Shown here in pieces: positions 11,601 through 37,672 of a stretch of DNA of 64,000 nt. The stretch comes from Amphiscolops sp. MND2022 (Eukaryota). Within the stretch, counting starts at the first letter, position 1. Every line of letters begins with the position of its first letter. The position numbers and the translations under genes are program-made. The notes under the pieces were generated by a model. It saw only the letters and a list, made by a program, of their open reading frames with translations, had not been told where the DNA came from and did no database searches. The stretch covers positions 30,568,001-30,632,000 of the forward strand of contig OZ076409.1 of assembly GCA_964187785.1 (NCBI GenBank), written 5' to 3'.

Positions 11601-13550
11601 CAGTGAAAACGAGATCAAGTTTCGAAGGTTTTCTTTTTTCCATTTTTCGCGATACTGGTTGCCGTCGTGACTAAGAAGTTTTGCAAACTTCACAACAACA
11701 AAGTTTATCAAAAGCACTGTGTTTCAAGCTCATACCCGAAACATGATGAGCCAAACGTTTCACATTTTTGAAATAGTTGTTACCAAGGCGATGATGCCAC
11801 AGCACCGCTTCTTCGTTCTCATCGGAAAAAAAGATCAAATGTCTTTCCTTTCATAACGTAAAGATTAGCGTGCTCTTCAAAAGGAATAGTTGCTCTTCCA
11901 TTGACAAAAATGCTCTGAGATTTTACTAAGTTCACTTGAGCCCCGTTTTGTCTCAACTTGCTAACGCTGATCAGGTTATGAGAATGATCAGGAAGAAAAA
12001 GACAGTCGGAAATTGTCACAACGTTCGATCTCCGTTGTCCAAAAGTAAAAGAAACTTTTCCAACACCCTCAACTTGCCAAAGTCCCATTCGCATTTTTTA
12101 CTTTGCGTTGTGTTTCTTCGCTGAAGTCAAAGAACAGAGAACGGTCAAATGACATATGCGGAGAAGCACAAGGGTCGATGACCAAAGTGTGCTCCTTCAC
12201 CTCGCATTTTTGGCCAGTGAGTGCGGTCTCACTACCATCGCAAAAGAAAACTAAGTCCTCAGCTAGGTTTGACTCTCCTGTCTCAGCACTTGACCTAGGG
12301 CTAAAAGAGGGCTTTTCTTGAAACATTTATTCTCTTCATGGCCAAAACGCCTGCAAAAGTTGCACTGGGTTACTCTACAAGTGGCTTGTTTATGTCCACT
12401 TTTACCGTAACGCCTACACTTCCCAGTGAACTTTTCAGGTTCACGCACGGAACTTTTCGCAACAGTTCCTTTGGATAACAAAGCAACATTTTCTTTCCTA
12501 GCTTTCGCAGTATGTAGGTTACGAGAACTTTCGAAATTTTTCAATGCTTTCTTTACTTCCGCAAAAAACGCCCTATTTTTCGAAAAATCGTGCAGTTTTG
12601 AAGTAGTCTTTTTCTGAAGGCAAGCCCTTAAGAACTATCGAAGTTAACATGTTTTCAGAAATTTTCTCACCAGCGAGCTCCAACTGCCTACTCACATACT
12701 CCGCTCGAGTCAGGTAGTCAACCATGCTCTCCGTTTGCTCCAATCGCAGGGTTGTGAACTTCTCCAATAGGTTTACCAACCTCTGTGTTTCGGTGCTGTT
12801 GAAGTGGTCCCGCAGTTGTTGCCATGCCTTCGGACCATCACCCTTGCAGTCGTTGGTCAGCATCAGGATACTGTGGCTGTCGATACACTGTACCAAGACA
12901 CGAAATACTAAGTACCCAATATCGTGCCCAGATTTCGTACTTCGTCATTCGTGCCAGCATCTATTCCATTCAGCACGTTCAGCAGCTTCTTCGTCAAACA
13001 GAACCCCTCGAATCGCTCCTGTCACACAGCTAAGTCTTCTTCTTTGCTAGAGAACTGGAGATACTGCAAAGGTCGATCCATCCCTCACAAACTCCAACAA
13101 AAGCCCGAAACAGGCAGAAGGAAGTAACTGAAACAAAAATGGGGGCAGCAAAACAGGAATTCCCACGAAGAGAAGCTACAAAGTTAACGGAAGCGAAACG
13201 GCGGTAACGGGCGGCATAAATAGCAAAAATTGTGGATATCCGAGACGCAAAAAGCAAAAATGGAGAGCGAAAATTAAGATCAGATGAGCCTAGTGAGAGT
13301 AAGCAGAAAAAGTTTTTTTTAAAAAAAGAAAAACTAACCAAAATGCTGGGCCCATAACCTATTGGGGCCTGAGCTCCTTCTGGTTGTAGCTGGGTTGTCG
13401 GATTGATGAAGATTGGTGATTGTCAATACTTTATACTTTGAGATGTATGTTTTGTTTACAAACAACAATAATGAACTAAATTAGTTCAGTCTGGTATAGT
13501 CTGAGTTGGTTGACCTTTAATGGTCCTCTGACCTTCATCGGTCTCTAACA
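8681..13550 (-). mobile_element. Full-length decayed Ty1/Copia LTR retrotransposon
   Basis: LTRs 13360-13550 and 8681-8911; 5-bp TSD TAGTT (8676-8680, 13551-13555); PBS 13344-13359; PPT 8912-8920. Domain order is gag 12896-12263 (knuckle CNFCRRFGHEENKC), protease, integrase 11800-11000 (LWHHRLG, IRSDNG), RT 10588-9713 (FKARFVAQGFSQ, QLDVRSAFLN, LYGLKQA, WVDD), RNase H ~9590-9200. Confidence 0.95.
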
Positions 13551-14856: not shown

Positions 14857-15096
14857 ATGGGAGATGCGGGCTTTTTCAGAGGTACGAACTCAGACCAGGA
14901 CAGTCGGTTCGCCAACAAGCAGTCCAAACTCAAGTCGCAGCTCCGTTTCGACAAGTGCCTCGAGCGCAAGGTTGACATGAATAAGGTCAATGTAGACTTT
15001 CTGAAACCCTGGATCACCAAACGTTGCTCAGAGATACTCGGATTCGACGATGACGTCGTCATTGATTTTGTTTTCAACATGCTGGACTCCGACAAA
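14857..15096 (+). CDS. SRRM1: Serine/arginine repetitive matrix protein 1-like, exon 1 (PWI domain)
   Basis: MGDAGFFRGTNSDQDSRFANK...KVDMNKVNVDFLKPWITKR..EILGFDDDVVIDFVFNML. Donor AAA|GTCAGT, phase 0. Confidence 0.95.
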
Positions 15097-18000
15097 GTCA
15101 GTTCAACATTCACTGCAAAATCAAAAAGTCTCTTCAAAAGTAGATCTTTTGGCGTGTGTTTTCATCGGGAGAATGAATAGTCGGTTTGAACTCATGGCGG
15201 TATCCCACTTTCGGCTTTAATGTTTCAAAATTTTCAATAACTTGATGGGGGTCATTTTGGACAATAATAGATTCTTCCTTTTCCTAATTGTAACCGAAGA
15301 AGCACTTGTTGCATGCGTTGAATACTTAAAACGGGTATTTGATGAATTATTTTTGAAAAATATTGCAAATTGGCATTCAGCGTGCAGCTGGAGAAAGAAA
15401 TCCAGTTGAAACACCTGTCAATTGGCATCCCTGGGTTTTTCACCATTCTAGGACTTAGTTTTTTTGTAGAAAGAGCAGACTATAGTAGTGGCTTTTCTAT
15501 TGTTATGCATCACATACAAAAGCATTTGTGAATTCAAATTTTCTAATAATCATTCCATTGAGTTTTATATAGCACTAATTAAAGACACGTGCTATTCATT
15601 GACATTATTATCTTGTTCACGTATTTATTATATTTACTTTTTTTTCTTCTCCACACTGTATAGTTGCTGCCAATCTACAAAACCAAAGTCAATTGACAAA
15701 AAACACTTTTGCTCTTCGAAAATCATCATAGTTGAAACATTTATTGGTGCATAGCGATCCGGGAACAATCAGAAATGTCTTTGTACGATGGAAAAACACT
15801 TCCACAACTCAAGCGATCTCGTTCTGCAATCACAGGATTGATAACTAAGACGCTAACCATAACACAACCAATCATGAACAAAGATAAAAACGAAGTGACA
15901 AACCAAGAAATAGCCGATTTGGAAGTCAGGCAATCCTTGTTTGAGAAAAAACTAAGCGAAGGTGAATTTCTGAATGCAGTAATTCTGGAGCAGATCCCTG
16001 ATACAGACGAAGAGGTACAAGACGAGTTCATCACTGCTTAGATATCACTTGAGCTTGGAAAAATAGTCAAATTTCTGGAACAATTCAACAATTCTGGTCT
16101 GAGTCTTGAAAATGCTAATTCTGCAATGGTGAGCAATTCTTCTAGTAACCTCAAGATGCCAAAATTCAATCTGCCAAGTTTTGATGGAGAATATCAGAAT
16201 TGGACGCCATTTTTTGAACAATTCATGGCATCTGTAGACGGTTCCACAACATTACCGGATATACAGAAATTCAACTATCTCAAGTCCTCTCTCGTGGGCG
16301 AAGCTTCCCAACTCATTTTGTATTTACGTTTTTAAACACAAACTAAAAATAGCTTTGAAAATTTTGATCGATTATGACAACCAAAGACTCATAGTGAATA
16401 CTCATTTGTCAGCAATTTTCAATTTGAAACCACTCCAAGGCGAATCAGCGTCAGGATTGCGGAAACTCATTGTCGCAATCGAAGAGACAGTTCGAGTTAG
16501 ATCATCCGGGAAAAGATCTACAGACATTGCAGCAACTAACAGATTTCATCAATCGACGAGTTCGGGCATTAGAGGTCTCGGATCTTCGTACTTATAGACC
16601 AAAAAATGACAAGGCGAATGCTAATACAGGGCGCATTCCTCCAAAGCAGAATTTCCAGAATCCAATTCCGCAAAACTACAAAGCTACAGTTGAGAAATGC
16701 TGCGTATGTTCGGCAGATCACAAAACTTTCAATTGACAAATTTAGAGCATTAGATTTCAAAGCCAAGAAGACACTTGTTTTCAATTCCAAATTGTGTTTC
16801 CATTGTCTCCAGGCAGGACATCTAACAAAGGACTGCAAATCCAAAAGTACATGCAAAGTTTGTAATGCCAAGCACAATTCATTACTTCACAATGAGAATG
16901 CTACTACTCGCAGTGAAAGTACCCTACAGTCGTCTCTGGACAAGCACTCACACCTTCTAACATAGGCATTTTGCCAACAGCGCTAATGTCTATTGAAGAT
17001 GATTCGAGCCAAATCATCAAACGCCGTGCACTCTTGGACAGTGGCTCACAGATGAGTCTTATCTGAAGAAGCAGTTCAACGCATGAAGTTGAAACGTCAT
17101 AAACATTCACTCACTGTGAACGGAATTGGAAACGTTCAGAGGACCTACAATTCCGGAAGGGTTCAGTTAAGATTGAGATCGAACGCAGGGAAAATGCTTG
17201 AAGTCCAAGCGTTATCCCTCCAAATCTCACAGCGAAGCTCTTTGACCCCATTGGTTGGTTTGGACCGATCATAGTACAATTCAAAATTTTGCTACGAGAG
17301 CTTTGGGTTCTTGGAATCAAATGGGATGAAATTTTGCCACCGGAGATTCAAGAGCAATGGAATCAGATGCGAGCAGACCTAAGATCTCTGCAGGACTTCA
17401 CATTGCAGCGATGCATCATTCCTTCAGGTAAAATTCGAACGGTCCAACTGCATTTGTTTACAGATGCATCCGAAAAAGCTTATGCCGCGGTAATCTTTGC
17501 ACGAATGACCGACACTAATGGTTTCGTGTGTGTCAACCTCATAGCTGGAAAAAAACGAGTGGCGCCGATGAAAACAGTATCGTTGCTGCGTTTGGAATTG
17601 TGTGGTGCTCATCTCGGAGTGAAACTAATTGTAAAAATCAAGAAGTTCTCGCAACGAATCTACCGCAACAAAAAATTTCGGATGGACCGACTCTACTATT
17701 GTCCTTCACTGGCTAGCCCAACTTCCACGAACTTGGACAACCTTCGTAGCGAATCGTGTGGCTGAAATTCAAGGATTTTCACGTTTTCAAGGAAGAATCC
17801 AATTGGAATCACGTCTCTTCAACAAACAACCCTGCTGATTGCTCTTCACGTGGAGCAACACTGGAATTGCTTCAATCTTCATGTCTTTGGTGGAATGGAC
17901 CCTAATGGCTACAACAATCACAAGATTTGTGGCCAAAACTAAGTCTTCAAGTTGAATCAATTCAAGCCAGGGGTCAAAATTCAAAAGAAACACCACAATC

Positions 18001-18655
18001 CCTTTCTCTCGCAGTCACACAATCAACTGCTTTTTCGGCACGATCAATATTCAAGCTTTTCCAAATTCTTTCGTGTAGCTGCAACAGTCCTACTCGCTGT
18101 AGACAAGTTCAGAGGAATCAACAGTTCTTCAGTCATAACTTCAAATGACCTAGCATCCGCAAAATTGAGAATACTTCAGGAACACCAAATTGAAAACTAT
18201 GCAGTTGACTATCAGACATTAAAATTCGCCAAAGAACTGTCAAAGCAGAGCAGGATTCTCAACCTTATTCCATTCTTCGATGACGAAAGCGAGACCATTC
18301 GAGTGGGTGGACGATTAACTCAGGGTCAATTCAGAGAGTTCAAAAAGTTTCCATTGCTCGTCAGTCAAGATTCGTTACTGGCAGTTCTCATACTTCATCA
18401 CTTTCTTGAAGCTACGCCTCATGGCGGGGCGGAGCCGACTGTGAACTCCAGTCGCGAAGAATTTTGGATTCTAAATACCAAATTTTGGTGAAAATGATCA
18501 AACAATGCATCAAATGTCGTTTCGAGAATAAAATACCATATCAATTAATGGCTGATTTACCAGCTGAACGGATAACGCCTGCAAAACCATTCGAGACATG
18601 TGGCTTGGATTTGGCAGGACCAATTTACACTAAACCAGGAGTGAAAACGTACATC

Positions 18656-21600
18656 GCCATTTTCGTTTGCTTCGTGATTAAAGCTGTCCACATTGAATTG
18701 GTAACAGATCTAACGAAGGAGTCATGCATTTTAGCCATCAAACGATTCATTTCCAGACGCGGTCTACCCAGAAAAATTCCAGCGACAACGGAAAGAATTT
18801 CATTGGGGCTAGGAATGACATCATCAAAGGGCAAGAGATTTTTGCCCTGGAAAAGAACAGCAATTCAATCGGAAGTTTCATATCCCAAGAAATGATTGAA
18901 TGGAAAATGATTCCTCCAAGGTCACCGCATTTTGGAGGATTATGGGAAGCGGCAGTGAAAAGCATGAAGCGTCATTAGCGCAGAACCGTTGGTGTTCAAA
19001 TCCTTTCATTCGAAGAACTCAACACTAGTAATTCAAATAGAAGCAATTCTGAATTCTCGACCATCGTCAGCAATGTCCAGCGGCCCGAATGACCTTCAGC
19101 CAATTACTCCAGCTCATTTTCTTTTGGGAAAATCTGCGAAAGATCTGCCTACGGCCCGTCAATCTGATGACAAAGTTGGTCTCAGTTAAACTAATTGAAG
19201 GATCGAAAAGGTCATTTTGGAAGGCATGGTATCGTGATTATCTAGTGACTCTGCAAATACGCAAACGATGGCTTCAATCTGGTCCTAATTTCCAACTGGG
19301 TGACCTGGTTTTGGTATCAGAGGACAACATGCCGCCTTTGCGGTGGAAAATGGATAGAGTCGAGCAGTTGGACTCTGGAAACGACGATATAAATAGAGTT
19401 GCGAAACTAAGAACATCATCTGGTCATATCATACGTCGCATAGTAAAGCTCAAAGCTTCCTGTCGATTCAAGCGCCGAATAACCAACCAAACCCTCTACC
19501 AGCAGCAAGTTCCATATCATCATATATTTCCCAGATTGATGTCTCCAAGGAGTCGATTTTTTACTTCTCGATTTCACGCTAGTTACTCGAAAGCTATGAA
19601 ATTGCGCGTGCATATACCTGGTATGATCTTACATCATTTTCGTTCGCTTCGTGATTAAAGCTGTCCACATTGAATTGGTAACAGATCTAACGAAGGAGTC
19701 ATGCATTTTCGCCATCAAAGGATTCATTTCCAGACGCGGTCTACCCAGAACAATTCTCAGCGACAACGGAAAGAATTTCATTGGGGCTAGGAATGACATC
19801 ATCAAAGTGCAAGAGACTCTCGCCCTGGAAAAGAACAGCAATTCAATCGGAAGTTTCATATCCCAAGAAATGATTGAATGGGAAATGATTCCTCCAAGGT
19901 CACCGCGTTTTGGAGGATTATGGGAAGCGGCAGTGAAAAGCATGAAGCGTCATTAGCGCAGAACCGTTGGTGTTCAAATCCTTTCTTTCGAAGAACTCAA
20001 CACTAGTAATTCAAATAGAAGCAATTCTGAATTCTTGACCACCGTTTGCAATGTCCAGCGGCCCGAATGACCTTCAGCCAATTACTCCAGCTCATTTTCT
20101 TCTGGGAAAATCTGCGAAAGATCTGCCTACGGCCCGTCAACCTGATGACAAAGTGATCTCGGACAAACTACTTGAAGGATCGAAAAGGTCATTTTGGAAG
20201 GCATGGTATCGTGATTATCTAGTGACTCTGCAAATACGCAAACGATGGCTTCAATCTGGTCCTAATTTCCAACTGGGTGACCTGGTTTTGGTACCAGAGG
20301 ACAACATGCCGCCTTTGCGGTGGAAAATGGACAGAGTCGAGCAGTTGGACTCTGGAAACGACGATATAAATAGAGTTGCGAAACTAAGAACATCATCTGG
20401 TCATATCATACGTCGCATAGTAAAGCTCAAAGCTTCCTGTCGATTCAAGCGCCGAATAACCAACCAAACCCCCTACCAGCAGCAAGTTCCATATCATCAT
20501 ATATTTCCCAGATTGATGTCTCCAAGGAGTCGATTTTTTACTTCTCGATTTCACGCTAGTTACTCGAAAGCTATGAAATTGCGCGTGCATATACCTGGTA
20601 TGATCTTACATCATTTTCGTTCGCTTCGTGATTAAAGCTGTCCACATTGAATTGATAACAGATCTAACGAAGGAGTCATGCATTTTCGCCATCAAAGGAT
20701 TCATTTCCAGACGCGGTCTACCCAGAACATTTCTCAGCGACAACGGAAAGAATTTCATTGGGGCTAGTAATGACATCATCAAAGTGCAAGAGATTCTCGC
20801 CCTGGAAAAGAACAGCAATTCAATCGGAAGTTTCATATCCCAAGAAATGATTGAATGGGAAATGATTCCTCCAAGGTCACCGCATTTTGGAGGATTATGG
20901 GAAGCGGCAGTGAAAAGCATGAAGCGTCATTAGCGCAGAACCGTTGGTGTTCAAATCCTTTCTTTCGAAGAACTCAACACTAGTAATTCAAATAGAAGCA
21001 ATTCTGAATTCTTGACCACCGTTTGCAATGTCCAGCGGCCCGAATGACCTTCAGCCAATTACTCCAGCTCATTTTCTTCTGGGAAAATCTGCGAAAGATC
21101 TGCCTACGGCCCGTCAACCTGATGACAAAGTGATCTCGGACAAACTACTTGAAGGATCGAAAAGGTCATTTTGGAAGGCTTGGTATCGTGATTATCAAGT
21201 GACCCTGTAAATATGCAAACGATGGCTTCAATCTGGTCCTAATTTCCAACTGTGTGACCTGGTTTTGGTACCAGAGGACAACATGCCGCCTTTGCGGTGG
21301 AAAATGGCTAGAATCGAGCAGTTGGACTCTGGAAACGACGATAGAGTTGCGAATTTAAGAACATCATCTGGTCATATCATACGTCGCATGGTAAAGCTCA
21401 GAAAGCTTCCTGTAGATGCATCGCAGCCGATTCAAGCGCCGAATAACCTACCAAACCCCCTACCAGCAGTAAGTTCCAATTCATCATGAGTTTCCCAGAT
21501 CGTTGTCTACAAGGAGTCGATTTTTTACTTCTCGATTTCACGCTAGTTACTCGAAAGCTATGAAATTGCTCGTGCATATATCTGTTATGATCTTACATCA
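18656..21600 (+). repeat. Three tandem copies (~977 bp) of the BEL integrase core plus 3' flank
   Basis: ORF pairs are offset by 977 nt (19651/20628, 20051/21028). Junction TTACATCATTTTCGTTCGC at ~19630 and ~20607. Confidence 0.95.
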
Positions 21601-22437
21601 ATCTGTTGAAACCAATTTTTGAATTTCTAACGCTTTTCAAGAAAAATCAAAAATTTACAATTTTTCACAAATCGGAAAAGCAAGAATTGACGGAACAAAA
21701 CTCTTCTCGATTTAGATTCAACTAGCGGGTTACGCTTACGTGCATTCAATGCAGAATTGTCAGCTTCACAAAATGGTTGAGCGGGATTTTTCGATTTCGT
21801 TAGTTACTTCGAGATTTTTCAATTTTGTTATTGTTGGCACATGTCGGAAGTAAGACTATTCCTCAGTTGGCGACAAAACACTTCTCGATTTATGTTGTGT
21901 TACAATACAGCCTTTATCATGGTCTCATTCGACACCTAAAAGGCTTATCTACAAAATGTTTGAACGGGGTTTTCGGATTTTATTCAAATTTCGACATTTC
22001 AAGGACTTACCCCCTTTTGACTTACCGAAATCCTGCATGTTTTCACATTTTAATACTTCAATCGTGTATTTTCTTACCTGGATTCCTCATTCATTGCATT
22101 CAAGCACATGTCCCAGGTGATTTCCGATTTCGGAATTGAAGCCCCGAAGCAGCTTAAATTTATAATAATTACGAAAAACAATACAGAACAAAAACGAGAA
22201 ACAGAAGTGGATTTCTCACGTTTTGCGTTTATTTTCTTTGTTTATTTGAAATTCTGATGCTTTGGTTCGATCAGAACGAGCAGGCAATCCCTATCTGATC
22301 CTTTTTCAATTTTAGAAATGCAATTTATCAGCTTTTGTTACTCATTTACCGTTACTATCATCTCCGGACTTCATCATTTTACAATCTTGAGCAGAAGACT
22401 GGTTATCATTCAATAAATGACGATTATACTGATTATA

Positions 22438-23776
22438 TCACTGCTGAATGACTCTCCTCGGATAATACAAAGGAATCTTTCGCTTTTCAACGATCTTCAA
22501 TTTCATTGATTTATGATTATTAAAGTTCATCGAAGTGCTCTTTTTACAGGAAAAGGGAGGAGTAAACTGACAAAGGGACATGTTCGTCTTCCGAGTCGGG
22601 ATAAGGTAGTTCAGGAACAACTACACATGAAGAAGCCTTTGCTTGCTTAATGTTAGAGAGCCGTGACCTTTTATTGCGATATGGTTTTCGTTTACGTTTA
22701 TTACGGTTCTCAAAGCTGCATGACATGTCATATCCAACGATTTTGAGTGCTTCAAGATGATTTAATACGACACTCGAGAACCTCTGCAGAGCTGAAGACA
22801 CAGCAGAGTTTGGGGAATCAACTGATTGGACACCAGGCACAGAGCTAGAAGCGAGACTTGTTCTCCATTTTTCAAGGCTCGTTTCCGATTTCGATGCCGG
22901 ATGCGATCAATCAATTCGTCCAATCCATTCTTTTGTATCCACTCCTCTACATAGTCCTGACCTGAGCCGAAGCTAAATCTTCCAAAAACTCGACTCCCCC
23001 TTTTCAAATCGCTGATGTTAACGCCTTCCCATCCTTGCACAAGGGACCACCTTGACATTCCATCGGAGGTCAAAGAACGACCGATAAGGACGCAATGTGC
23101 AAAGAGAGGAGGCTGAATTAACACATAACCAGGTTCGGCCAAATGATAACGCAGCCCTCTACACAATTTCGTCTCGTTCCGATTGATGCTCTCAGGCCAC
23201 ATTAAAAGACGATAAATGCTGTTGAAGTCAGTAATGTTCAACACGAATTGTGAAGAGACGAGATTAGTGTAAATGATTCAAAGTTTGCGCCCGGATGCTA
23301 GTTTTGCTATACACGCGCCTCCAGCAGACTCAATATGCCCAGCAGTTAACCAATGGCCCTTCACTGCCAAAAGATCCTTGGAAGTCACAGTGATGTAGTC
23401 AGGGACAAGCGTAGTAACATCTGTCAGGATGGGCAAACGAGCAAGTCTTTTGAAGGCTTGGAAAGAACATGAACCGGACCTCCAGGCCTTTTCAACTCTT
23501 GGCGAAAAAGAACAGTTTTTTCGCAAAAGAACCACGAACAACAAGTGGCATCATCGGAAAAGATACCAACCAATTCAGCATTTGGATTACCAAAACTGGC
23601 AGTATTCCCCTCCTGCGCCACTTGAGACCGCCATTCTTTTTTGCTTCAAGGGAAATTTCTTCGACTTTCTCTTCGATTGCTACTTCCGGAAGTACCCACT
23701 CGCCTTCACTCTTCTCGGCAACTTCTCTACTGATTCCTTTCTGAAAGTATTGAAGACTATTCGGTGTATCCTTCAA
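22438..23776 (-). pseudogene. JmjC-like Fe(II)/2OG oxygenase cargo gene, antisense inside the BEL element
   Basis: One frame 23544-22762 with a single TGA at a Trp position: WLTAGHIESAGGACIAKLASGRKL*IIY...YHLAEPGYVLIQPPLFAHCVLIG. H at 23335-37, E at 23329-31, distal H at 23095-97. N- and C-terminal extensions are frameshifted. Confidence 0.7.
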
Positions 23777-23983
23777 GGCGGGTGGATTGTTGATGCATCA
23801 CATACAAAAGCATTTGTGAATTCAAAATTTCTAATTTTCATTCCATTGAGTTTTATATCGCACTAATTAAAGACACGTGCTTTTCATTGGCATTATTATC
23901 TTGTTCACGTATTTATTATATTCACTTTTTTTCTTCTCCACACTGTATAGTTGTTGCCAATCTACAAAACAATAAAAGTCAAA

Positions 23984-24411
23984 GGCTCTTTTCTGTTTTC
24001 CCCCCCCCACCACCAAAATTTTTGGAAGTAAATTTCTTTAAAAACTTTAGACTACCCTAATTAAAAGTAAAACCTTCTTTCATAATGGGAAGATAACGTC
24101 TATTGGAACGTCTAATGGATTAGTTTTTTGCTTGAACAAAACATTGTTCACGCTTTTTGGCTATAATTATGTTCGCATTAAGTGTTTATTGATTACTCAA
24201 AACAGGAAGCTGTTGATTTCTTCATCAAAAATGCGTGACTACATATTGAAAAAATGTGAACAAAGTTTGTATCTGAATCCTAAACTGTCACACTAAGAAT
24301 AAATGTAACTTTGAAGTTTTCTGATTTGTATTCAAGTCTTTTTGTTATTAGATTTTCACTAATTTTTCAAAAAATTTTCTGGTGGTGGGGGGGGGGAAAC
24401 AGAAAAGAGCC
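23984..24411. mobile_element. MITE (GG...CC termini, 8-bp TSD; Merlin- or MULE-like) inserted in the BEL 3' LTR
   Basis: TIR GGCTCTTTTCTGTTT(T)C-run-ACCACCA at both ends. TSD AAGTCAAA at 23976-23983 and 24412-24419. Confidence 0.9.
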
Positions 24412-25360
24412 AAGTCAAATGATAAAAAACACTTTCGCTCTCCCGAAAAAAAACATAGTTGAAACACTATTTTTGAGACCGAAGTGACAGATTTTATAAA
24501 TATCTATAAAGTTTGTTCATTCTGTTCAATTTGCAGACAGGTGAACTACGGATCCACAAAACGTACTAGAACCTCGCAAACATGTCATTTCTCGTATATC
24601 GTTGTCGATTTTTTCCCACAATTTCACATAATTTGCGTCCAATGTAAAGTTTTAGGGTCAGGTTTGCAGTACTATAAGACTTTTTGGATTTTTGGAAAAT
24701 CTTTATTCAACATTTGAACTAAAACCACGTCCCCCGGTACACTTTTGTGCCTTGAGCGGGGCGCCCACTTGGGCCGTTCCGGGCTTGTTACCAGTTTCGA
24801 TTATGTCATATCGCGTTATGCTGCCGGTTTGGGTGAAAATTGAGCGCTTGTGCTGAAGCCGAAAAGAAAAAATACGCATAAATACTTTCACTAAAATTCC
24901 GTCTGAATTTTGGTGAAGAAAATTTTGATCATTGTTTTTTCCCGTCTGAATTTCTAGATGAAGTTTTGCTTAAAGTGGAATGCCTCCGTTGGGTTTAGAA
25001 CATTAAGAAACCACCCAGCTAAGACCCCAGATCGAACCATGTAAGCCGTTCGCTGTTTTCTCTTTCGAAGTATTTATCTGAAATCAATCTTGTTTTATCA
25101 GGTAAGGATCCGTTGACATCGACACGCTATAAGTCGGATCCCCTTCAATGTTGCCATTACCTTCGTTATTTCATAATAATGATAATCTGCAAATCTTGAA
25201 GAAACCTTTAATAATAATAATAATTGAAAAAGCATCTTTTGGCTTGGAATGAATGGATGTGGAATCATAGTAGCCATTTTATGAAAATAACATCTTGTTC
25301 AGTCATTGTACACTTTATCACTGCCGTTTCTTCAATTGTTTTGTATTGGTGTTGTTCCAG

Positions 25361-25557
25361 GTTGACCCCAAAGAGTGTCAAATAAACCTGACTGGATTTT
25401 TCGGGGCCCGACAGGCAACTAACTTCATGGCGGAGCTCTGGGACTTGATGCTGTCTGCTCAGGAGAGCGAGTCTGGCATCCCACAGAAGTTCATCGACGC
25501 CAAAAAGGCAGAGATCAAAAGCAGGGAGAAGGAAAAGGAGGGCTCCCTTCAAAATAG
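25361..25557 (+). CDS. SRRM1: SRRM1-like exon 2 (PWI domain C-terminal half)
   Basis: TTCCAG|VDPKECQINLTGFFGARQATNFMAELWDLMLSAQESESGIPQKFIDAKKAEIK. Donor AG|GTTATC, phase 2. Confidence 0.92.
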
Positions 25558-25779
25558 GTTATCATCCATTGTTAGGACTTCGAAAACGTTTTGAAGTACT
25601 ATTCGCGTTGACAAGTTTTTTCCACTATAAACAGTTTTATGTATATTTTTCTGGCTCCGCAAAGGTTGAATCAAATTCAAAAAATATATAACACTTGCAG
25701 TATGCTAATAGCATATATATGGTAAATATGCTAATAAATAATGGTAAATATTAGCATGGTAAATATGCTAATAGTATGC

Positions 25780-28700
25780 AAATAACATAAGAGCGAATAA
25801 TATAAAATTAGCTTCAAATAACAAAATTGAAATTAGTTTCTAATAATATAAAAATAAAACAGAGTAACCGGTTGAACAATCGAACTCAGAAAATTAAATT
25901 TCTCAAGCTGCTGACGACAATTCAATTCTCGTGCGATGGAACGAGCGAGCGGTAATTATGCATTCGTACGCTGACGTCATTGAGATGAAGCGAATGAGTG
26001 TTAATTATTCGTTCTCGGAGAGCTTCGCCTGCATTCAATTGCGAATGCGAAACTTCGTCTATCCTTAGTAGTTATATTTGCTTTAGTCCGAGATTTAAAG
26101 GCGGTATAAACTGGTACCGTGATAAATGATTACGTTCCAAATAACATAACAAAATTAGTTTCATATAACAAAATTGAAATTAGTTTCAAATTACATAAAA
26201 ATAAAACAGAGTACCCGGTTAAACAATCGACCTCAGAAAAATAAACTTCTCCAGGTGCCGATAACGATTCGATTCACGTGCGATGGAACGAGCGAGAGGT
26301 ATTTATGCATTCGTACGCCGAATTCATTGAGATGAAGCGCGCAAATGTTTGCAATGATGCTTTAGTACGCCGAGTTATTGAAACGAACCGAACGAGTGTT
26401 AAATATTCGTTCGCCGAGAGCTTCGCGTGCATTCGAATGCGAAACTGCGTCTACACGTAGTAGTTAGATTTTTTTGTCTGAAGAATTAAAGGCGGTGTAA
26501 ACTGGCAGTGATTAATTGTGCGCTATATAAATGATTCAGATATGCTTCTATTATTAAACATGAAGCCTAGAAGCAGAAATAGTACTGTGCCCCGCAGGGA
26601 CCTATTTTTTGTTATTTCTGCGGTAGCAGGAATATTATTGAAATCTGAAGATGTCTACTTTTTTCAGTAAAATTCTTCGCTTGATACTGAATAATTCAGA
26701 TATTTTGTGCGCCAGTGACTGGAAGCGTGAGAATTAAATTTCTCAAGCTGCCGACGATAATTCAATTCTCGTGCGATGGAACGAACGAGCGGTAATTATG
26801 CATTCGTACGCTGACGTCATTGAGATGAAGCGAATGAGTGGTAATTATTCGTTCTCGGAGAGCTTCGCCTGCATTCAAATGCGAATGCGAAACTTCGTCT
26901 ATCCTTAGTAGTTATATTTGCTTTAGTCCGAGATTTAAAGGCGGTATAAACTGGTACCGTCATTAATGATTACGTACCAAATAACATAGCAAAATTAGTT
27001 TCATATAACAAAATTGAAATTAGTTTCAAATAACATAAAAATAAAACAGAGTACCCGGTTAAACAATCGACCTCAGAAAAATAAACTTCTCCAGGTGCCG
27101 ATAACGATTCGATTCACGTGCGATGGAACGAGCGAGAGGTATTTATGCATTCGTACGCCGAATTCATTGAGATGAAGCGCGCAAATGTTTGCAATGATGC
27201 TTTAGTACGCCGAGTTATTGAAACGAACCGAGCGAGTGTTAATTATTCGTTCGCCGAGAGCTTCGCGTGCATCCGAATGCGAAACTGCGTCTACACGTAG
27301 TAGTTAGATTTTTTGTCTGAAGAATTAAAGGCGGTGTAAACTGGCAGTGATTAATTGTGCGCTATATAAATGATTCAGATTTGCTTCTATTATTAAACAT
27401 GAAGCCTAGAAGCAGAAATAGTACTGTGCCCCGCAGGGACCTATTTTTTGTTATTTCTGCGGTAGCAGGAATATTATTGAAATCTGAAGATGTCTACTTT
27501 TTTCAGTAAAATTCTTCGCTTGATACTGAATAATTCAGATATTTTGTTCGCCAGTGACTGGAAGCGTGAGAATTAAATTTCTCAAGCTGCCGACGATAAT
27601 TCAATTCTCGTGCGATGGAACGAACGAGCGGTAATTATGCATTCGTACGCTGACGTCATTGAGATGAAGCGAATGAGTGTTAATTATTCGTTCTCGGAGA
27701 GCTTCGCCTGCATTCAAATGCGAATGCGAAACTTCGTCTATCCTTAGTAGTTATATTTGCTTTAGTCCGAGATTTAAAGGCGGTATAAACTGGTACCGTG
27801 ATTAATGATTACGTACCAAATAACATAAGAGCGAATAATATATAATTAGCTTCAAATAACAAAATTGAAATTAGTTTCTAATAATATAAAAATAAAACAG
27901 AGTAACCGGTTGAACAATCGAACTCAGAAAATTAAATTTCTCAAGCTGCTGACGACAATTCAATTCTCGTGCGATGGAACGAGCGAGCGGTAATTATGCA
28001 TTCGTACGCTGACGTCATTGAGATGAAGCGTATGAGTGTTAATTATTCGTTCTCGGAGAGCTTCGCCTGCATTCAATTGCGAATGCGAAACTTCGTCTAT
28101 CCTTAGTAGTTATATTTGCTTTAGTCCGAGATTTAAAGGCGGTATAAACTAGTACCGTGATTAATGATTACGTTCCATATAACATAACAAAATTAGTTTC
28201 ATATAACAAAATTGAAATTAGTTTCAAATAACATAAAAATAAAAGAGTACCCAGTTAAACAATCGACCTCAGAAAAATAAATTTCTCCAGGTACCGATAA
28301 CGATTCGATTCACGTGCGATGGAACGAGCGAGAGGTATTTATGCATTCGTACGCCGAGATGAAGCGCGCAAATGTTTGCAAAGATGCTTTAGTACGCCGA
28401 GTTATTGAAACGAACCGAACGAGTGTTAAATATTCGTTCGCCGAGAGCTTCGCGTGCATTCGGATGCGAAACTGCGTCTACACGTAGTAGTTAGATTTTT
28501 TTCTCTGAAGAATTAAAGGCGGTGTAAACTGGCAGTGATTAATTGTGCGCTATATAAATGATTCAGATATGCTTCTATTATTAAACATGAAGCCTAGAAG
28601 CAGAAATAGTACTGTGCCCCGCAGGGACCTATTTTTTGTTATTTCTGCGGTAGCAGGAATATTATTGAAATCTGAAGATGTCTACTTTTTTCAGTAAAAT

Positions 28701-31700
28701 TCTTCGCTTGATACTGAATAATTCAGATATTTTGTTCGCCAGTGACTGGAAGCGTGAGAATTAAATTTCTCAAGCTGCCGACGATAGTTCAATTCTCGTG
28801 CGATGGAACGAACGAGCGGTAATTATGCATTCGTACGCTGACGTCATTGAGATGAAGCGAATGAGTGTTAATTATTCGTTCTCGGAGAGCTTCGCCTCAT
28901 TCTGCATTCAAATGCGAATGCGAAACTTCGTCTATGCTTAGTTTTTTTTTGCTTTAGTCCGAGATTTAAAGGCGGTATAAACTGGTACCGTGATTAATGA
29001 TTACGTACCAGATAACATAAGAGCGAATAACATAAAATTAGCTTCAAATAAAATTGAAATTAGTTTCCAATAATATAAAAATAAAACAGAGTAACCGGTT
29101 GAACAATCGAACTCAGAAAATTAAATTTTTCAAGCTGCTGACGACAATTCAATTCCCGTGCGATGGAACGAGCGAGCGGTAATTATGCATTCGTACGCTG
29201 ATGTCATTGAGATGAAGCGAATGAGTGTTAATTATTCGTTCTCGGAGAGCTTCGCCTGCATTCAAATGCGAACGCGAAACTTCGTCTATCCTTAGTAGTT
29301 ATATTTGCTTTAGTCCGAGATTTAAAGGCGGTATAAACTGGTACCGTGAATAATGATTACGTACCAAATAACATAACAAAATTAGTTTCATATAACAAAA
29401 TTGAAATTAGTTTCAAATAACATAAAAGTAAAAGAGTACCCAGTTAAACAATCGACCTCAGAAAAATAAATTTCTCCAGGTACCGATAACGATTCGATTC
29501 ACGTGCGATGGAACGAGCGAGAGGTATTTATGCATTCGTACGCCGAATTCATTGAGATGAAGCGCGCAAATGTTTGCAATGATGCTTTAGTACGCCGAGT
29601 TATTGAAACGAACCGAACGAGTGTTAATTATTCGTTCGCCGAGAGCTTCGCGTGCATCCAAATGCGAAACTGCGTCTACACGTAGTAGTTAGATTTTTTT
29701 GTCTGAAGAATTAAAGGCGGTGTAAACTGGCAGTGATTAATTGTGCGCTATATAAATGATTCAGATTTGCTTCTATTATTAAACATGAAGCCTAGAAGCA
29801 GAAATAGTACTGTGCCCCGCAGGGACCTATTTTTTGTTATTTCTGCGGTAGCAGGAATATTATTGAAATCTGAAGATGTCTACTTTTTTCAGTAAAATTC
29901 TTCGCTTGATACTGAATAATTCAGATATTTTGTTCGCCAGTGACTGGAAGCGTGAGAATTAAATTTCTCAAGCTGCCGACGATAATTCAATTCTCGTGCG
30001 ATGGAACGAACGAGCGGTAATTATGCATTCGTATGCTGACGTCATTGAGATGAAGCGAATGAGTGTTAATTATTCGTTCTCGGAGAGCTTCGCCTCATTC
30101 TGCATTCAAATGCGAATGCGAAACTTCGTCTATGCTTAGTAGTTTTTTTTGCTTTAGTCCGAGATTTAAAGGCGGTATAAACTGGTACCGTGATTAATGA
30201 TTACGTACCAGATAACATAAGAGCGAATAACATAAAATTAGCTTCAAATAAAATTGAAATTAGTTTCTAATAATATAAAAATAAAACAGAGTAACCGTTT
30301 GAACAATCGAATTCAGAAAATTAATTTTTTCAAGCTGCTGACGACAATTCAACTCCCGTGCGATGGAACGAGCGAGCGGTAATTATGCATTCGTACGCTG
30401 ATGTCATTGAGATGAAGCGAATGAGTGTTAATTATTCGTTCTCGGAGAGCTTCGCCTGCATTCAAATGCGAACGCGAAACTTCGTCTATGCTCAGTAGTT
30501 TTATTTGCTTTAGTCCGAGATGTAAAGGCGGTATAAACTGGTACCGTGATTAATGATTACGTACCAAATAACATAAGAGCGAATAACATAAAATTAGCTT
30601 CAAATAACAAAATTGAAATTAGTTTCTAATAATTTAAAAATAAAACAGTAACCGGTTGAACAATCGAACTCAGAAACTTAAATTTCTCAAGCTGCTGACG
30701 ACAATTCATTTTTCGTGCGATGGAACGAGCGAGCGGTAATTATGCATTCGTACGCTGACGTCATTGAGATGAAGCGAATGAGTGTTAATTGTTCGTTCTC
30801 GGAGAGCTCCGCCTGCATTCAATGCGAATGCGAAACTTCGTCTATCCTTAGTAGTTATATTTGCTTTAGTCCGAGATTTAAAGGCGGTATAAACTGGTAC
30901 CGTGATTAATGATTACGTACCAAATAACATAACAAAATTAGTTTCATATAACAAAATTGAAATTAGTTTCAAATAACATAAAAATAAAACAGAGTACCCG
31001 GTTAAACAATCGACCTCAGAAAAATAAACTTCTCCAGGTGCCGATAACGATTCGATTCACGTGCGATGGAACGAGCGAGAGGTATTTATGCATTCGTACG
31101 CCGAATTCATTGAGATGAAGCGCGCAAATGTTTGCAATGATGCTTTAGTACGCGCCGAGTTGTTGAAACGAACCGAACGAGTGTTAATTATTCGTTCGCC
31201 GAGAGCTTCGCCTGCATTCGAATGCGAAACTGCGTCTACACGTAGTAGTTAGATTTTTTTGTCTGAAGAATTAAAGGCGGTGTAAATTGGGAGTGATTAA
31301 TTGTGCTCTATATAAATGATTCGGATATGCTTCTATTGATAAACATGAAGCCTAGAAGCAGAAATAGTACTGTGCCCCGCAGGGGCCTATTTTTATTATT
31401 TCTGCGGTAGCAGGAATATTATTGAAATCTGAAGTTGTCTACTTTTTTAGTGAAATCCTTCGCATGATACTGAATAATTCAGATATTTTGTTCGCCAGTG
31501 ACTGGAAGCGTGATTAAATTTCTCAAACTGCCGACGACAATTAAATTCTCGTGCGATGGAACGAGCCAGCGGTAATTATGCATTCGTACGCTGACGTCAT
31601 TGAGATGAAGCGAATGAGTGTTAATTATTCGTTCTCGGATATCTTCGGCTGCATTCAAATGCGAATGCGAAACTTCGTGTATCCTTAGTAGTTATATTTG

Positions 31701-31860
31701 CTTTAGTCAGAGATTTAAAGGCGGTATAAACTGGTACCGTGATCAATACCTACCAAATAACATGAGAGCGAATAACATAACAAAATTGGTTTCAAATAAC
31801 AAAATTGAAATAACATAAAAATAAAACTGAGTACCCGGTTAAACAATCGAACTCAGAAAG
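25780..31860. repeat. Complex satellite array: 15 related monomers (~345-360 and ~490 bp) in higher-order arrangement
   Basis: Core GTGCGATGGAACG at ~25931, 26278, 26771, 27118, 27610, 27969, 28314, 28798, 29158, 29503, 29996, 30358, 30715, 31061 and 31551. Confidence 0.95.
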
Positions 31861-32674
31861 TTTTACCTGTAATTTGCACACTTTTTTTCAGTGAATCTTT
31901 TGAATTGTAATTGCTTTTGTGCTTTTTTTCCTATATGTGCTATGGCATCAAAATCGTATGGCTGGGTCAGTGGGGGAATCCCCAAAAATTGTCCCGAGGG
32001 ATCGGTAGGGCCCCTATCCCGAGATCGAGGTGAAGCTAAATAACAACCATATTCAAAACACGCACTTCTGAGTACGATCTTGAAAACTGTACGTATGATT
32101 CGAACGAAATTTTCTACAGTCATTCTACACCATATTAAAGTCCTATATGTGCAATGGCGTTTAAATCTGGTATGCGGGTATATGGGTATGGCTGGAATGC
32201 GAGAAACATAGCCAAAACTAGCCCAAAATGGTTTTAAGAAAAGAGCCAATTTTCGACTTCGAATTTCGCCCAAAATTTCAAAAATACAATCAAAATGGGT
32301 AAATTCTGCCCAAATTCGTGCCAATTTGGTCCTTTTGCCGCTGTTTCAGCGTTCCAGCATTCCCCGTTGAAAAATGACGAGACCTCAAAATATTCAAAGA
32401 AAAACTTTTTCAACTCCAATTTTTTTCCAACTTCAGGCCTCCCAAAGTTAAGAAACGTCCCCACAACTAGGATTAGAAGTGGATGCATGTGGAAAGTACT
32501 CGAATAGACGAGAAAAATGCGCTATAGTAGGTCTCTGTATCTTGACCTGACGTTGACTTATGATGTTTTGAGTGTGAGCTGGATAAGGGGTTAAAATGCC
32601 AAAATTGGAAATGGAAATATAAGTCTCATCCAAAACTCATCGGAAGACGTTCAATTAACCCCAAAGGTGTTCAA

Positions 32675-34216
32675 TTGACGTTGTTTAGCGCACCAAAACC
32701 ATGCAAAGTCAACGTGGAACGCTTCTCTAAACCTTCTCGTCTCCTTCGGACTACTGTATTTGTTCTCAGAGCAAGGAACATCTTTCTTTTGGCTTTGAAG
32801 AAGGAAAGGCGTCCTTTCTTGAAAGAAGTAACATTCGAAGAATTGCAGAATGCTAAATTCCTTTTAGTTTCGCAATTGCAAAGAAATCATTTCTCGAAGG
32901 AATTCAAGCAGCTACAGCAGCAGAAGCCATTGGATCGCAACAGTTCGATTCTCAATCTCACCCCGTTCTTTGATTCCGATTACGACGTCATCCGAGTTGG
33001 TGGTCGTTTGGGATATTCTTCATATCGAGAAGATAAAAAGTTTCCATTACTTCTTCCAAAGGAATCAGACTTCACAACCCTTGTTATTCGCAGTTTTCAT
33101 GAAGCTTCCCTCCATGGGGGAGGGCAGCTAACGCTAAACTTGATACGCGAAGAATATTGGCCAATCGCAGGAAAGGTTCAAGTTAAAAGCATGATCCGAC
33201 AGTGTATAAAATGTAGAAGATTCGATGTAAAAGCCCCTATTCAAATGATGGCTGATCTTCCAACAGAAAGAAATACACCCTCCAAACCCTTTGCCTTCAC
33301 TGGAATTGACTTCGCTGGACCCATCATTACTTTGCCAAACGAAAAAACATACATCGCAATTTTCGTTTGCTTCGTTGTTAAGGCAACTCATCTCGAATTA
33401 GTTTCGTCATTGACGAAAGAAGCGTGTCTCAACGCCTTACAACGATTCGCTTCGAGGAGAGGAGTACCACAAAAAATTGACTCGGATAATGGAAGGAATT
33501 TCATCGGTGCCAGATGCGATCTGAAGATTCAAGATTTGATGAGCAAAAACAGCGAAAACACCATCACTAATTTTGGAACAGAGTTGGGAGCAAACTGGAT
33601 AGTTCTTGAAAATCATGAGAATCCGGAGTGGAATATGATACCTCAACGAGCTCCTCATTTTGGAGGGCTTTGGGAAGCCGCTGTTAGAAGAATGAAACAT
33701 CACCGTCGACTTTCCCTAGGAAGCCAGATCCTGACCTATGAAGAGCTTCTAAATTACGTTACACAAATTGAGTCGATAATGAACTCTCGACCATTATATC
33801 CACTATCTACAGATCCAAACGACTTAGATCACTTTCTCATTGGACAACCCTTTTGAGCCTTGCCTCTACATGATCTTCCGGAATCATTTCCATTGGATCA
33901 ACGATTTCGTCTCTTACAAGATCTTATTTCTTCCTTTTGGATGAAGTGGAAAAGGGATTACTTGGTACATTTACAGATCAGGAAAAGGTGGTTCAAAGAT
34001 GGGGAAAGGGTCAGCGTTGGTGACATGGTGTTAGTGGCTGAAGACAACCAACCCCCTTTATGTTGGAAACTGGGACGTGTCATAGCAGCTTTCGAAGGAA
34101 ATGACAATGTTAATCGCGTTGTTAAGGTCAAGACGATCCAGAGCGCGATTGTTAGACCCGTTGTAAAGCTGAGAAAGTTGTTTTCAGAAGAAGAAGTAAA
34201 TCGCTCAGTACCTTAA
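32675..34216 (+). mobile_element. Second BEL/Pao element, pol 3' part (integrase), 5'-truncated
   Basis: LNLTPFFD..IRVGGRL, H..LHGG...CIKC zinc motif, GIDFAGP, SDNGRNF, APHFGGLWEAAV, WKRDYL..LQIRKRW, RPVVKL. Clearly related to, but diverged from, the first BEL. No LTR recognised. Confidence 0.92.
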
Positions 34217-34618
34217 CCAGGTTATCAAAGAGATTGTCAATGCCATTTAGCTCTAACTGCAATTATCCAGCATTTTTTACTGATAAAAAGTGCACCCCAA
34301 GTTCATTTTTTGGGATATTCCAGAAATTATTTGCTGTATTAACGCTTCCTTCATACTTACAGCTTCTACAAACGTCGTAATGTATATGGACAACTTTTCA
34401 ATTGTTTTCTACTGTTCCGATGGTCTACTTGATAGACTCAAATTCTTGTTTGGTCCATAAAAAGTGCACCCTCAAGTGCTATGTTCGTGATAGAAAACTC
34501 CATATGGACTCAAATCGTTCTTAGCAATGCTGCTTAGCCTACACTGAAGATATAGCTTCCTACTCTTAACAAATATTCTGCTAATCTGATGTTTTACTTC
34601 AAATTATTAAACTCACCT

Positions 34619-35482
34619 TCAATATTCCCTTCTATGCCCAACTGCTGTCATTGAGTTGGCACGATTATTGGCCGCATTGATGCGATCGGTATCTGCCCTG
34701 ACGTCAACTGATACCATACAGGAGGGTCGATCATCGCAGAATGTGATAACCGCGTGACCACACCCATATGGCATGTACAGAGTCTCGCCAGCCCTTACCT
34801 CGCACCAACTGATTTTCTTTTTCATTGTGGGGGACAGTCTTTGTAGATGTTGTAGTAGATGCTATATGGCCTGTTTATCGTCCATGGCGCCGCACTGCTT
34901 GACCAGATCCGCTGCTGCCCGGCTCATGGGGCAGAACAACCAGATCTTCTGCCCAGATAACAGCGTCATAACCTGGTCACCAGCTGTCTCCACAGCGGAC
35001 AAGTCAAAATGCCACGGACGATAGCTGGTTCCACCAACAAAGAGAAGATATCTGAAATCAAGCCTCATACTCATTGTATTCAAGGCAATTTTCGCATTAT
35101 ATCATATGAAAAGAATTGATTCATACCCATAGTTGATGGAGCCAAAACTTCCAGGCTAATCACACTTGACGCTTCCCTTTTGTTCTTTCAAGAAGTCATC
35201 CAAGACATCAACCGGCAGATCGGGAGTTGATGTCCTTTTGCTCGTGTTCTTCTTGAAGGAAGCGTCCGACAAATCCCCCACCTCTCGGGCCTGAAGAAGC
35301 TCCTCGGCCGACTTCCCCTCGATCTTGATCGAGAAGCCCTCAATGACAGCAGGTTCGTCTCGTCTTGACCGCACCTCAGCCAACAACAGTCTGGAAACCT
35401 GCGGAAAGCTTCCCGCCAACAAGCTACGGATTGCCTCCAGATCTGCCATTGGAGAGGTGCTAGTGCTTCGCCGAAGACTCAT
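34619..35482 (-). pseudogene. JmjC-domain gene (~287 codons, three in-frame stops), convergent with the second BEL integrase
   Basis: The three listed ORFs share one frame (stops at 35156-58, 35102-04, 34862-64): LFVGGTSYRPWHFD...MTLLSGQKIWLF...EVRAGETLYMPYGCGHAVIT. H at 35009-11, D at 35003-05, distal H at 34754-56. Confidence 0.82.
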
Positions 35483-36575
35483 GTTCAATCTGAAAATTCG
35501 CATAACAAGGAGAGGAGTTATGTTGAAGAACACTTAAAAACCGTGAAACTTTGTTCTGACTCATTTTCATAAACGATGATTGCCGCATTTATTTTGTTCA
35601 TGCTTACTTCACACTTGTTGAAAAAATAGCATTGTGGTTTCTCTTCAGCTCATGAACAAGTTGTTTCTTGATTTCAACTTTACCGCCTTTTGTCAAAAAC
35701 TAGTTTCACTTTTCAAATTGTTAATTCAATCTGTTTTGTAAAGTACATTTTCAACTACTAAACAGAACAACCTACAACGCCTTCCAATTGGAAAATGTAG
35801 TTTTCCAGTTAGAAAAATTTCAGAATTACCAAAAAAATTACCCGAAAAAATCCTGAAGTTTTGGACGTTTGTATTCAATTTTTGTAAAAAAAAATTCGAA
35901 TTTCGTGTATTCGAATGGTGTACACAAGAGATGCAGTTTCTTGTTTGAACAACGCGTCAAAATGACCCTAAAGTAGTCAAAAATATCAATTTTTAAGATT
36001 TTTAGTGACTTTTTGCGGAAAAAATTTGGTAGGTTAGATACTGGTATCCACTTAGTGCAACAACAAAAATCGGTACTTAGCGTATTCTTAAATCATAATC
36101 AGGTTTTTCCTTTAAAGATTAATCAAAATGTGTCAAAACTTTGATTCTTTCGAACTTCTATGCACTTTCACATTGCATTGGCTACTCTTGAGCCTTAAGA
36201 TTGTCGTAGTAGAACAGTTTGGGGCAGAAACCATCCCGCTGGTCAGTGGGTGTCTTGTTACATTACGACTGATGATTTTTTTCCTAAAGGCGTCTTCTAA
36301 CAGTATACGAAAATTATCGCAGTTGTCTGCGCCTCTGAATTCTTATCCAAAAAACTACTTCACAAAGAAGTGTTGTTGCACCAAAACTTGCTTGACATGA
36401 TTTTGTTGAAAAAGATTTCTTGAACATTATCTGCTGTATAAAAAATGCAATAGACGCTAATTAGATAAAAATTTAATCCCTCAGACTTCGATTGTAAAAC
36501 TATTTCGATGTTTGAGAATGAATGTTATTTGGAATAACAAACTCGTGGTTTTTAATTGGTGAATAGTTGCTACAG

Positions 36576-37272: not shown

Positions 37273-37504
37273 GTGAGTTCATTTTCTATAAAATGAGGAA
37301 TTTGTGATAGTTAAGAACTGCCAGATTTTTCCGAAGTGGTTCAATCAAATTTTCTGGATTTGCAGTGCAATTAATGACAGTGGAATCTTTTCTAATTTCA
37401 TTTTCTGTCAAATGCTTTGGTTTATTTGTTATGTGTTTAACTTATTGGTTTTCGTGAAGTTGAAAGAAGCCTCTAGAAAATCAGTATCGAAAAATATGCT
37501 GTAG

Positions 37505-37672
37505 GTCTTCCAGACGCTCTCCTTCATACGAACCCTACTGCAATAGGTCTTCCAAGTATAGGAAGCGAAGTAGCAGCAGACAAGACAGTCGCAGCAGAAA
37601 GGAAGAGGATCTCAGTCGACGAAGTCCATCCGACAGAAATGCGCCAAGGAGAAGACGAAGCTCTAGTACCAG
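37505..37672 (+). CDS. SRRM1: SRRM1-like exon 5 (copy 1)
   Basis: GTAG| ... AG|GTTAGT; 168 nt, phase 2/2, open RS-rich frame (SSRRSPSYEPY...RRRSSST). Not in the ORF track. Confidence 0.8.

Follow-up and report, generated by a model that had tools for sequence, protein, structure and literature searches.

The window analysed here is a 64,000-nucleotide stretch of the Amphiscolops sp. MND2022 genome (contig OZ076409.1, positions 30568001-30632000), taken from a 1.07-Gb assembly; positions without a locus name refer to it. It contains two BEL/Pao retrotransposons inside a host gene that is SRRM1-like, with a PWI domain match in a Pfam scan. Each element carries, 3' of its integrase and on the opposite strand, a gene with the motifs of JmjC oxygenases, hereafter its cargo. 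Host exon boundaries were placed from splice sites: one exon ends at 15096 and others start at 25361 and about 36576. Since these exons separate the two elements, the elements lie in neighbouring introns. A preliminary description, made from the letters alone, had proposed this arrangement, and the long terminal repeats (LTRs), domains and coordinates confirmed it, except that element 2 does not end at 35482 and runs to about 35769. The features are as follows.

14857..15096, plus strand: host SRRM1-like exon with the PWI domain, upstream of element 1
15501..15739, plus strand: 5' LTR of element 1 (TG...CA)
about 15740-15757: putative primer-binding site of element 1, directly after the 5' LTR
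15766..17223, plus strand: gag and protease region of element 1, with stops and frameshifts; reverse transcriptase (RT) absent thereafter
17229..21417, plus strand: RNase H (Peptidase_A17) and integrase of element 1, broken
22550..23722 (about), minus strand: cargo 1, a JmjC pseudogene of the HxE clade, motif HIE...H
23788..24466, plus strand: 3' LTR of element 1, split by an insertion, with a purine-rich tract just upstream
25361..25556, plus strand: next host exon, between elements 1 and 2; 3' boundary approximate
32564..34216, plus strand: integrase of element 2 (H2C2, rve, DUF5641)
34619..35051, minus strand: cargo 2 exon 2, JmjC core with HFD...H and G.K.W, one internal stop
35052..35126, minus strand: cargo 2 intron, GT...AG, 75 nt, phase 2, 31% GC
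35127..35449, minus strand: cargo 2 exon 1, one internal stop
35450..35769, plus strand: 3' end of element 2, common to related copies, ending in AACA; LTR boundary not fixed

The LTRs of element 1 (15501-24466) start with TG, end with CA and are 94.6% identical over 183 bp, and CTAT stands on both flanks; these are four shared bases, the target-site duplication of BEL/Pao elements being 5 bp. When an intact BEL pol was compared with element 1 by tblastn, residues 1-231 matched and the next match began at residue 671, indicating deletion of the RT. The integrase end is present in triplicate, as 977-bp units over 18658-21600. The insertion that splits the 3' LTR measures 428 bp (23984-24411) and has 40-50-bp terminal inverted repeats. 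Element 2 is a 5'-truncated BEL/Pao, present as a 3' fragment at about 32564-35769. Scans of the window elements found A17, rve and DUF5641 domains and no RT. The integrase tails of the two elements were 52% identical, and direct BLAST of cargo 1 against cargo 2 gave no similarity (E 0.86), in agreement with the earlier view of related integrases with hardly similar cargos.

Both window cargos are pseudogenes. Cargo 1, which was sister to locus L061 in a quick cargo tree, has a stop codon within the G.K.W strand as well as frameshifts. Cargo 2 (34619-35449, minus strand) has two stops in its exons. The JmjC motifs described previously are thus present; neither gene is intact, and cargo 2 is not the single open reading frame (ORF) that had been assumed, being split by the intron at 35052-35126. 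We located the boundaries of this intron in 15 of 19 copies (71-82 nt, 28-32% GC); two subfamilies whose proteins are about 55-63% identical have it at one position and in one phase, and one copy had a non-GT donor. Because the intron is antisense, cargo 2 was probably expressed from a transcript distinct from the genomic RNA. A search with Pfam JmjC, suggested earlier as a check, gave a score below the curated cut-off for cargo 2 (22.1 bits against 24; E 2e-4) and no match for cargo 1.

We aligned intact natural relatives in two sets, 30 sequences for the HxE clade and 20 for the HxD clade, and the two profiles matched each other (P 95.5%, E 1.4e-8). HxD/E together with G.K was kept in 65 of 73 cargo ORFs (loci L041-L120), and H.V.T as well in 63. 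This H.V.T, at the third ligand, is invariant or nearly so in both clades, and the GG after the first two ligands is found in the HxE clade only. One relative, L058, passed Pfam JmjC_2 (22.5 against a cut-off of 22). AlphaFold models of the intact relatives L041 and L106, folded in place of the broken window copies, reached a predicted local distance difference test (pLDDT) score of 78.9 and 79.1, only the best of five models being confident for the HxD clade. With both models the top 50 Foldseek rows were all JmjC oxygenases, as structure prediction had been expected to reveal, and VIA gave Z 14-15 against JmjC structures. The models thus identify the cargo family as JmjC oxygenases with a predicted double-stranded beta-helix fold. 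An env remnant, considered as the identity of the cargo, is excluded by the fold.

The conserved ligands also bear on a non-catalytic role, in which the cargo would be an anti-silencing or decoy protein that binds heterochromatin factors. PHF2, a JmjC protein with an atypical site, was at or near the top of the VIA comparison, and the repeats of a PolB element (below) hold a second JmjC-like ORF seemingly without metal ligands. Fission-yeast Epe1 has been reported to bind heterochromatin factors (PMC7192584). Against such a decoy, H162, E164, K179 and H243 were invariant in 30/30 HxE sequences and all motifs were kept in those 63 of 73 copies, and we regard it as improbable.

Searches outside the genome found family members without informative names. 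The HxE profile matched 442 representative proteins at E up to 0.001, and 10/10 of those looked up had no informative name; word-index protein searches with cargos gave 7, 8 and 2 matches, all uninformatively named. The ESM Atlas returned JmjC-type clusters with no subfamily given, and in viral contigs 5 pattern matches were seen, none of which was confirmed. Six metagenome loci were 42-65% identical to their nearest genome copy, so the family exists in other samples. In one of them the JmjC gene is convergent with a long ORF that ends in a weak Macro-domain match, as in one Gypsy pol here.

Within the genome, the two cargos gave 143 and 150 matches, which are lower bounds on copy number and exclude the single-copy host gene that the preliminary description had named as the contrary case; genome searches found no close single-copy host source of the cargo. 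Among the top cargo-2 loci, a convergent BEL integrase lay within 1.5 kb at 15 of 16 distinct non-self places, bearing out the predicted linkage, and the remaining place is the upstream repeat of such a BEL element. Sixty further loci were picked by hand from both rankings, long open frames being favoured among distant matches, and are therefore a non-random sample. Of these, 39 were BEL (38 with the gene convergent to pol, 1 to gag only), 16 were Gypsy and 1 was a PolB element with inverted repeats; the probes matched nothing at the other 4. In 11 Gypsy loci the env position is taken by a long sense ORF, and the gene lies antisense between it and the integrase; the sense ORF had no informative family match and is not called env with certainty.

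Ten 20-kb views placed the genes more closely. Six were BEL elements with the gene inside a direct-repeat pair, in one case largely within the 1,018-bp repeat itself. One Gypsy element had the gene in both terminal repeats, each at least 3.3 kb, and one PolB element had it in both of its inverted repeats (about 4.5 kb, 99.5% identity); one locus had no pol match, and in the last view a Gypsy LTR pair did not enclose the gene, which stood next to an ORF with a weak SET-domain match. LTR pairs with TG...CA ends were also present in L041/42 and in L043/44, whose flanks agree at 4/5 positions, and L041 has the complete order of protease, RT, RNase H and integrase with Peptidase_A17 and DUF5641. 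The cargo was antisense in every LTR element where a pol or gag probe gave the orientation, and its reading frame begins in or beside the 3' LTR. This layout would suit self-limiting regulation, in which the element is damped by the antisense gene or by its RNA; antisense ORFs in plant LTR elements and human T-lymphotropic virus serve as models (PMC7264820). Such damping would leave the conserved catalytic ligands and the inverted-repeat DNA element unexplained, and any intron-bearing cassette needs the antisense position to survive retrotransposition; we therefore consider this alternative, like the decoy, to have little in its favour.

The PolB carrier (L055/56, L086) has long terminal inverted repeats and a B-family polymerase, as Maverick/Polinton elements do; the polymerase motifs were read by eye, and library scans gave only endonuclease VII matches. 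No RT was seen, and integrase, capsid and packaging ATPase genes were not seen among the listed ORFs, so we call it only a PolB element. The second JmjC-like ORF in its inverted repeats lies at L055:4719-5348, L056:3717-4343 and L086:2854-3481 and has a weak profile match (20.7 bits).

Several carriers had further features. The JmjC gene outside the Gypsy LTR pair (L050:5846-7051, minus strand) belongs to the HxE clade and stands head to head with the weak SET-domain ORF (7496-9355, plus strand); the Gypsy element of L049-L050 has three antisense ORFs of no identified family between integrase and 3' LTR (L050, minus strand, 1364-2605, 2853-3521 and 3448-4341). Weak Macro-domain matches occur in Gypsy pol or pol-like ORFs of JmjC carriers (L054:3-2549, L123:1091-2152). 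At L111:2977-5444 three JmjC copies stand in tandem at a spacing of about 1,047 bp, interleaved in every case with sequence from the integrase end. Another antisense cargo occupies the same position in a BEL element at L146:767-1666 (minus strand), a 300-aa ORF with a weak match to OTU protease (E 0.037).

We then compared the trees of cargo and carrier (cargo tree, 39 rows, LG+G4; pol tree, 21 rows). A first, quick cargo tree had 2 short rows dropped, and a first integrase tree 3, window element 1 among them. In the cargo tree, cargos of Gypsy, of two BEL groups and of the PolB element fall together with metagenome sequences in one clade with 100/99 support. Approximately unbiased (AU) tests rejected a clade of BEL-borne HxE genes (p 3.9e-5), of all BEL cargos (p 2.6e-7) and of Gypsy cargos (p 8e-66); on the pol tree, the carriers of two well-supported cargo clades were rejected as clades (AU p 2e-7 and 5e-8). 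These groups were named from the cargo tree after the quick integrase tree had been viewed, the model was a simpler one and some branches are long. Given this conflict between trees, the JmjC cassettes have been exchanged among BEL, Gypsy and PolB carriers, with no co-descent. The single BEL/Pao clade with a co-descending cargo, as first envisaged, is accordingly rejected. The idea of an accessory module stood in part: a JmjC gene under purifying selection does lie inside BEL LTR pairs (6 of the 10 views), and the supposed fast evolution gave way to two deep clades. The window cargos are so unlike because they belong to two old cargo clades, not because of fast drift from one BEL ancestor.

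The JmjC cargo family is under purifying selection. We estimated dN/dS pairwise by the Nei-Gojobori method for 159 pairs, many of them saturated. Pairs with a finite dS above 1.4 had dN/dS of 0.08-0.27, and unsaturated subfamily pairs gave 0.09 (L044/L064), 0.18 (L079/L083), 0.20 (L075/L082), 0.27 (L058/L103) and 0.36 (L091/L094). The exceptions were pairs with L110 (0.48-0.94), whose ORF is frameshifted. For cargo 2 against L005, the two exons gave 0.017/0.114 and 0.016/0.132 (about 0.15 and 0.12). The pairwise test, the only one used, showed no sign of positive selection. Near-identical pairs scattered from about 0.3 to 1.9; neutral ratios in very young pairs are explained by the decay expected after insertion. 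That the cargos are neutral passengers, captured host gene fragments without function, might be argued from this scatter, from the two broken window copies and from the many BEL ends that lack the gene. The low dN/dS at dS above 1.4 rules this out to a large extent, clades with 20-50% identity still have open frames 300-470 codons long, and the genome searches yielded no close single-copy host source; we consider a neutral passenger very improbable.

For the function, we favour a reader-less histone demethylase derived from KDM2/7 that counters chromatin silencing, a proposal whose chances we regard as evenly balanced. A pool of genes for JmjC Fe(II)/2-oxoglutarate (2OG) oxygenases circulates among the mobile elements of the genome; in LTR elements they are antisense and lie between integrase and 3' LTR, in Gypsy also between integrase and an additional sense ORF, or within a terminal repeat. 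Transcription of the cargo would be independent of gag-pol and would probably start at an antisense promoter within the LTR or close to it; an antisense intron would survive, the genomic RNA being of the opposite strand. The predicted protein, a compact catalytic domain with no histone-reader domains and often a basic tail, would presumably enter the nucleus and remove repressive histone lysine methylation at its own element family. KDM2/7 family substrates are H3K9me2, H3K27me2 and H3K36me2, and removal of such marks by a KDM2/7-like cargo would keep copies transcribed. Carriage by both retroelements and a DNA-replicating PolB element suggests a common obstacle, for example chromatin silencing. 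The fuller version, an exchangeable KDM2/7-derived demethylase kit of BEL, Gypsy and DNA elements, in some cases spliced and antisense in the LTR, that erases marks family by family, seems to us somewhat less than evenly likely.

Affinity to KDM2/7 is a lean, not a result. The best PDB matches of the HxD profile were PHF8 (E 0.002) and KDM7A (E 0.009), and the HxE profile placed the KDM2/7-like locus L137 (E 7e-4) ahead of JMJD4 (E 0.13). VIA alignments covered 220-259 residues of PHF2/PHF8/KDM7/KDM2A against about 190 of JMJD5, extending in KDM2/7 into the C-terminal helices (JHD region). H.V.T is common to PHF8 and KDM2A and was not found in the genome's own KDM5, KDM6-like and JMJD4 genes. 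Of 36 long ORFs, 32 had basic 12-mers (at least 5 K/R) close to the C-terminus, a count without a control.

A number of observations weigh against this proposal. Identity to solved JmjC proteins is 8-16%, the HxE profile matched nothing among PDB sequences at E up to 1, and the VIA Z values for KDM2/7, JMJD5, FIH, TYW5 and JMJD6 lie within about 1-2 units. TYW5 (HxE model) and JMJD5 (HxD model) held the first Foldseek ranks, the HxD profile gave a tie between KDM2/7-like (4.1e-6) and JMJD4 (5.6e-6), and a further BEL cargo, L139, was weakly nearest JMJD6 (E 0.4). The cargo tree did not settle the root among host families, with KDM5 inside on a long branch; its placement of the cargos relative to KDM2/7 rests on long branches and few outgroups. 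No scanned cargo had a Pfam match to PHD, CXXC or JHD (PF17811), no targeting module was found on the cargos, and a diffusible demethylase would also benefit elements without the gene. Finally, 14 BEL ends were picked by DUF5641 alone (6,215 candidates, 150 of them scored); an antisense JmjC gene, from two further subfamilies, is present in 4, and the other 10 have none within about 3.2 kb, which makes the gene dispensable.

The same rankings would fit an enzyme that hydroxylates or demethylates non-histone proteins of the silencing machinery, such as methyl-arginines of PIWI/Tudor-pathway proteins. JMJD5, JMJD6 and FIH modify non-histone proteins; JMJD5 also tops VIA with the HxE model, FIH is high in Foldseek, and L139 leans to JMJD6. 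The missing reader domains agree with such a substrate, and a target in a small-RNA pathway would likewise account for the presence of the gene in different element classes. KDM2/7 is favoured instead by H.V.T and by the longer structural match, which takes in the C-terminal helices, and we judge a silencing-protein substrate unlikely. Modification of nucleic acid, be it the tRNA primer, element RNA or DNA bases, is less likely still. It would be in line with TYW5, which acts on tRNA, as the first Foldseek match of the HxE model, with basic tails that could bind nucleic acid, and with the AlkB-type RNA demethylase of an orchid Gypsy element as a precedent (PMC9289625). TYW5, however, ranks only 14 and 33 in VIA, and the same cargo clade is present in the PolB element, where no RT was seen.

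A separate multicopy element (L133-L138; L153 and L154 are flanks of L137), which also speaks for the KDM2/7 reading, contains a clearly KDM2/7-like JmjC (KDM2A E 2e-18), together with weak SET and BRCT matches, tandem repeats of about 298 bp and long ORFs that we could not classify. It had no match to the retroelement pol probes and is possibly a DNA transposon. Among 62 matches, about 39 were similar to this gene, and the host genome has one JHD-domain locus. L129 and L130 are near-identical JMJD4-like loci on different contigs.

Elsewhere in the window, copia-like gag fragments with zinc knuckles, read by eye, lie upstream of the host gene (12263-13422, minus strand), and a 171-bp tandem array occupies 4540-5870. 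The second intron of the host contains a complex tandem array (25690-31960). A 4-kb tandem duplication of 99% identity (37457-45517) spans the RS-rich exons of the host, and a 500-bp inverted copy belonging to it lies at 47508-48012.

Few enzymatic examples bear on the open question of how retrotransposons resist chromatin silencing by the host. The JmjC enzyme gene described here is conserved, has at least hundreds of matches in many subfamilies and is common to several element classes; it reveals that BEL, Gypsy and DNA elements have exchanged genes. Families with and without the gene can be compared side by side in one genome, and the small size of the proteins permits direct assay. VANC of plants is a non-enzymatic protein; if the demethylase proposal is true, the cargos would be its enzymatic equivalent in an animal-type genome and the first case of a histone demethylase encoded by a retrotransposon. 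Even with a non-histone substrate, this divergent JmjC family, which is under purifying selection, would add a new accessory function to those of LTR elements.

The closest relatives in structure are KDM2A, PHF8, KDM7A and PHF2, which share the predicted fold, H.V.T, the GG after HxE and the match into the C-terminal helices; the cargos differ from KDM2/KDM7 in being about 10-14% identical, in having no PHD, CXXC or F-box, and in HxE for HxD in one clade, their activity being predicted. Our literature search found no account of LTR retrotransposons with a JmjC gene, though one may exist in Repbase Reports or in subscription journals, which lay outside its coverage. Transposon-borne epigenetic enzymes (TET/JBP, AlkB, SET) are already known as a kind. 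The TET/JBP genes of fungal DNA transposons are likewise a pool of 2OG oxygenases that moves between superfamilies with a proposed anti-silencing role; they act on DNA bases and in DNA transposons, whereas the genes here are JmjC, antisense and mostly in LTR retrotransposons, and the lack of TET-bearing retrotransposons was remarked on there (PMC12730594). Endogenous giant viruses of Amoebidium also have reader-less JmjC genes in mobile DNA, some intron-bearing, with silencing avoidance proposed; those are KDM4-derived, while the BEL, Gypsy and PolB cargos lean to KDM2/7 and are far more diverged (PMC11244446). Among the accounts compared here, this is the only one to treat JmjC genes of mobile DNA. 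In orchids, Ty3/Gypsy elements similarly have a fixed additional ORF for an Fe(II)/2OG oxygenase, an N6-methyladenosine (m6A) demethylase; this one is of the AlkB family, has an RNA substrate and occurs in one recent Gypsy family, no JmjC being mentioned in that account (PMC9289625). The ORF3 pool of bdelloids (DEDDy/GDSL) is another case of enzymatic extra ORFs traded between distant retroelements; the enzymes are others, and as far as described they show no clear departure from neutrality, in contrast to the clear purifying selection here (PMC5408684). Transposon-borne chromatin factors that are not JmjC enzymes include arthropod CopiaMBD, a methyl-CpG reader (PMC6673714), and VANC of VANDAL elements, with family-specific anti-silencing (PMC5735166). 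The present system differs from the known ones in its enzyme family, its carriers, the antisense spliced layout and the exchange across retroelements and DNA elements.

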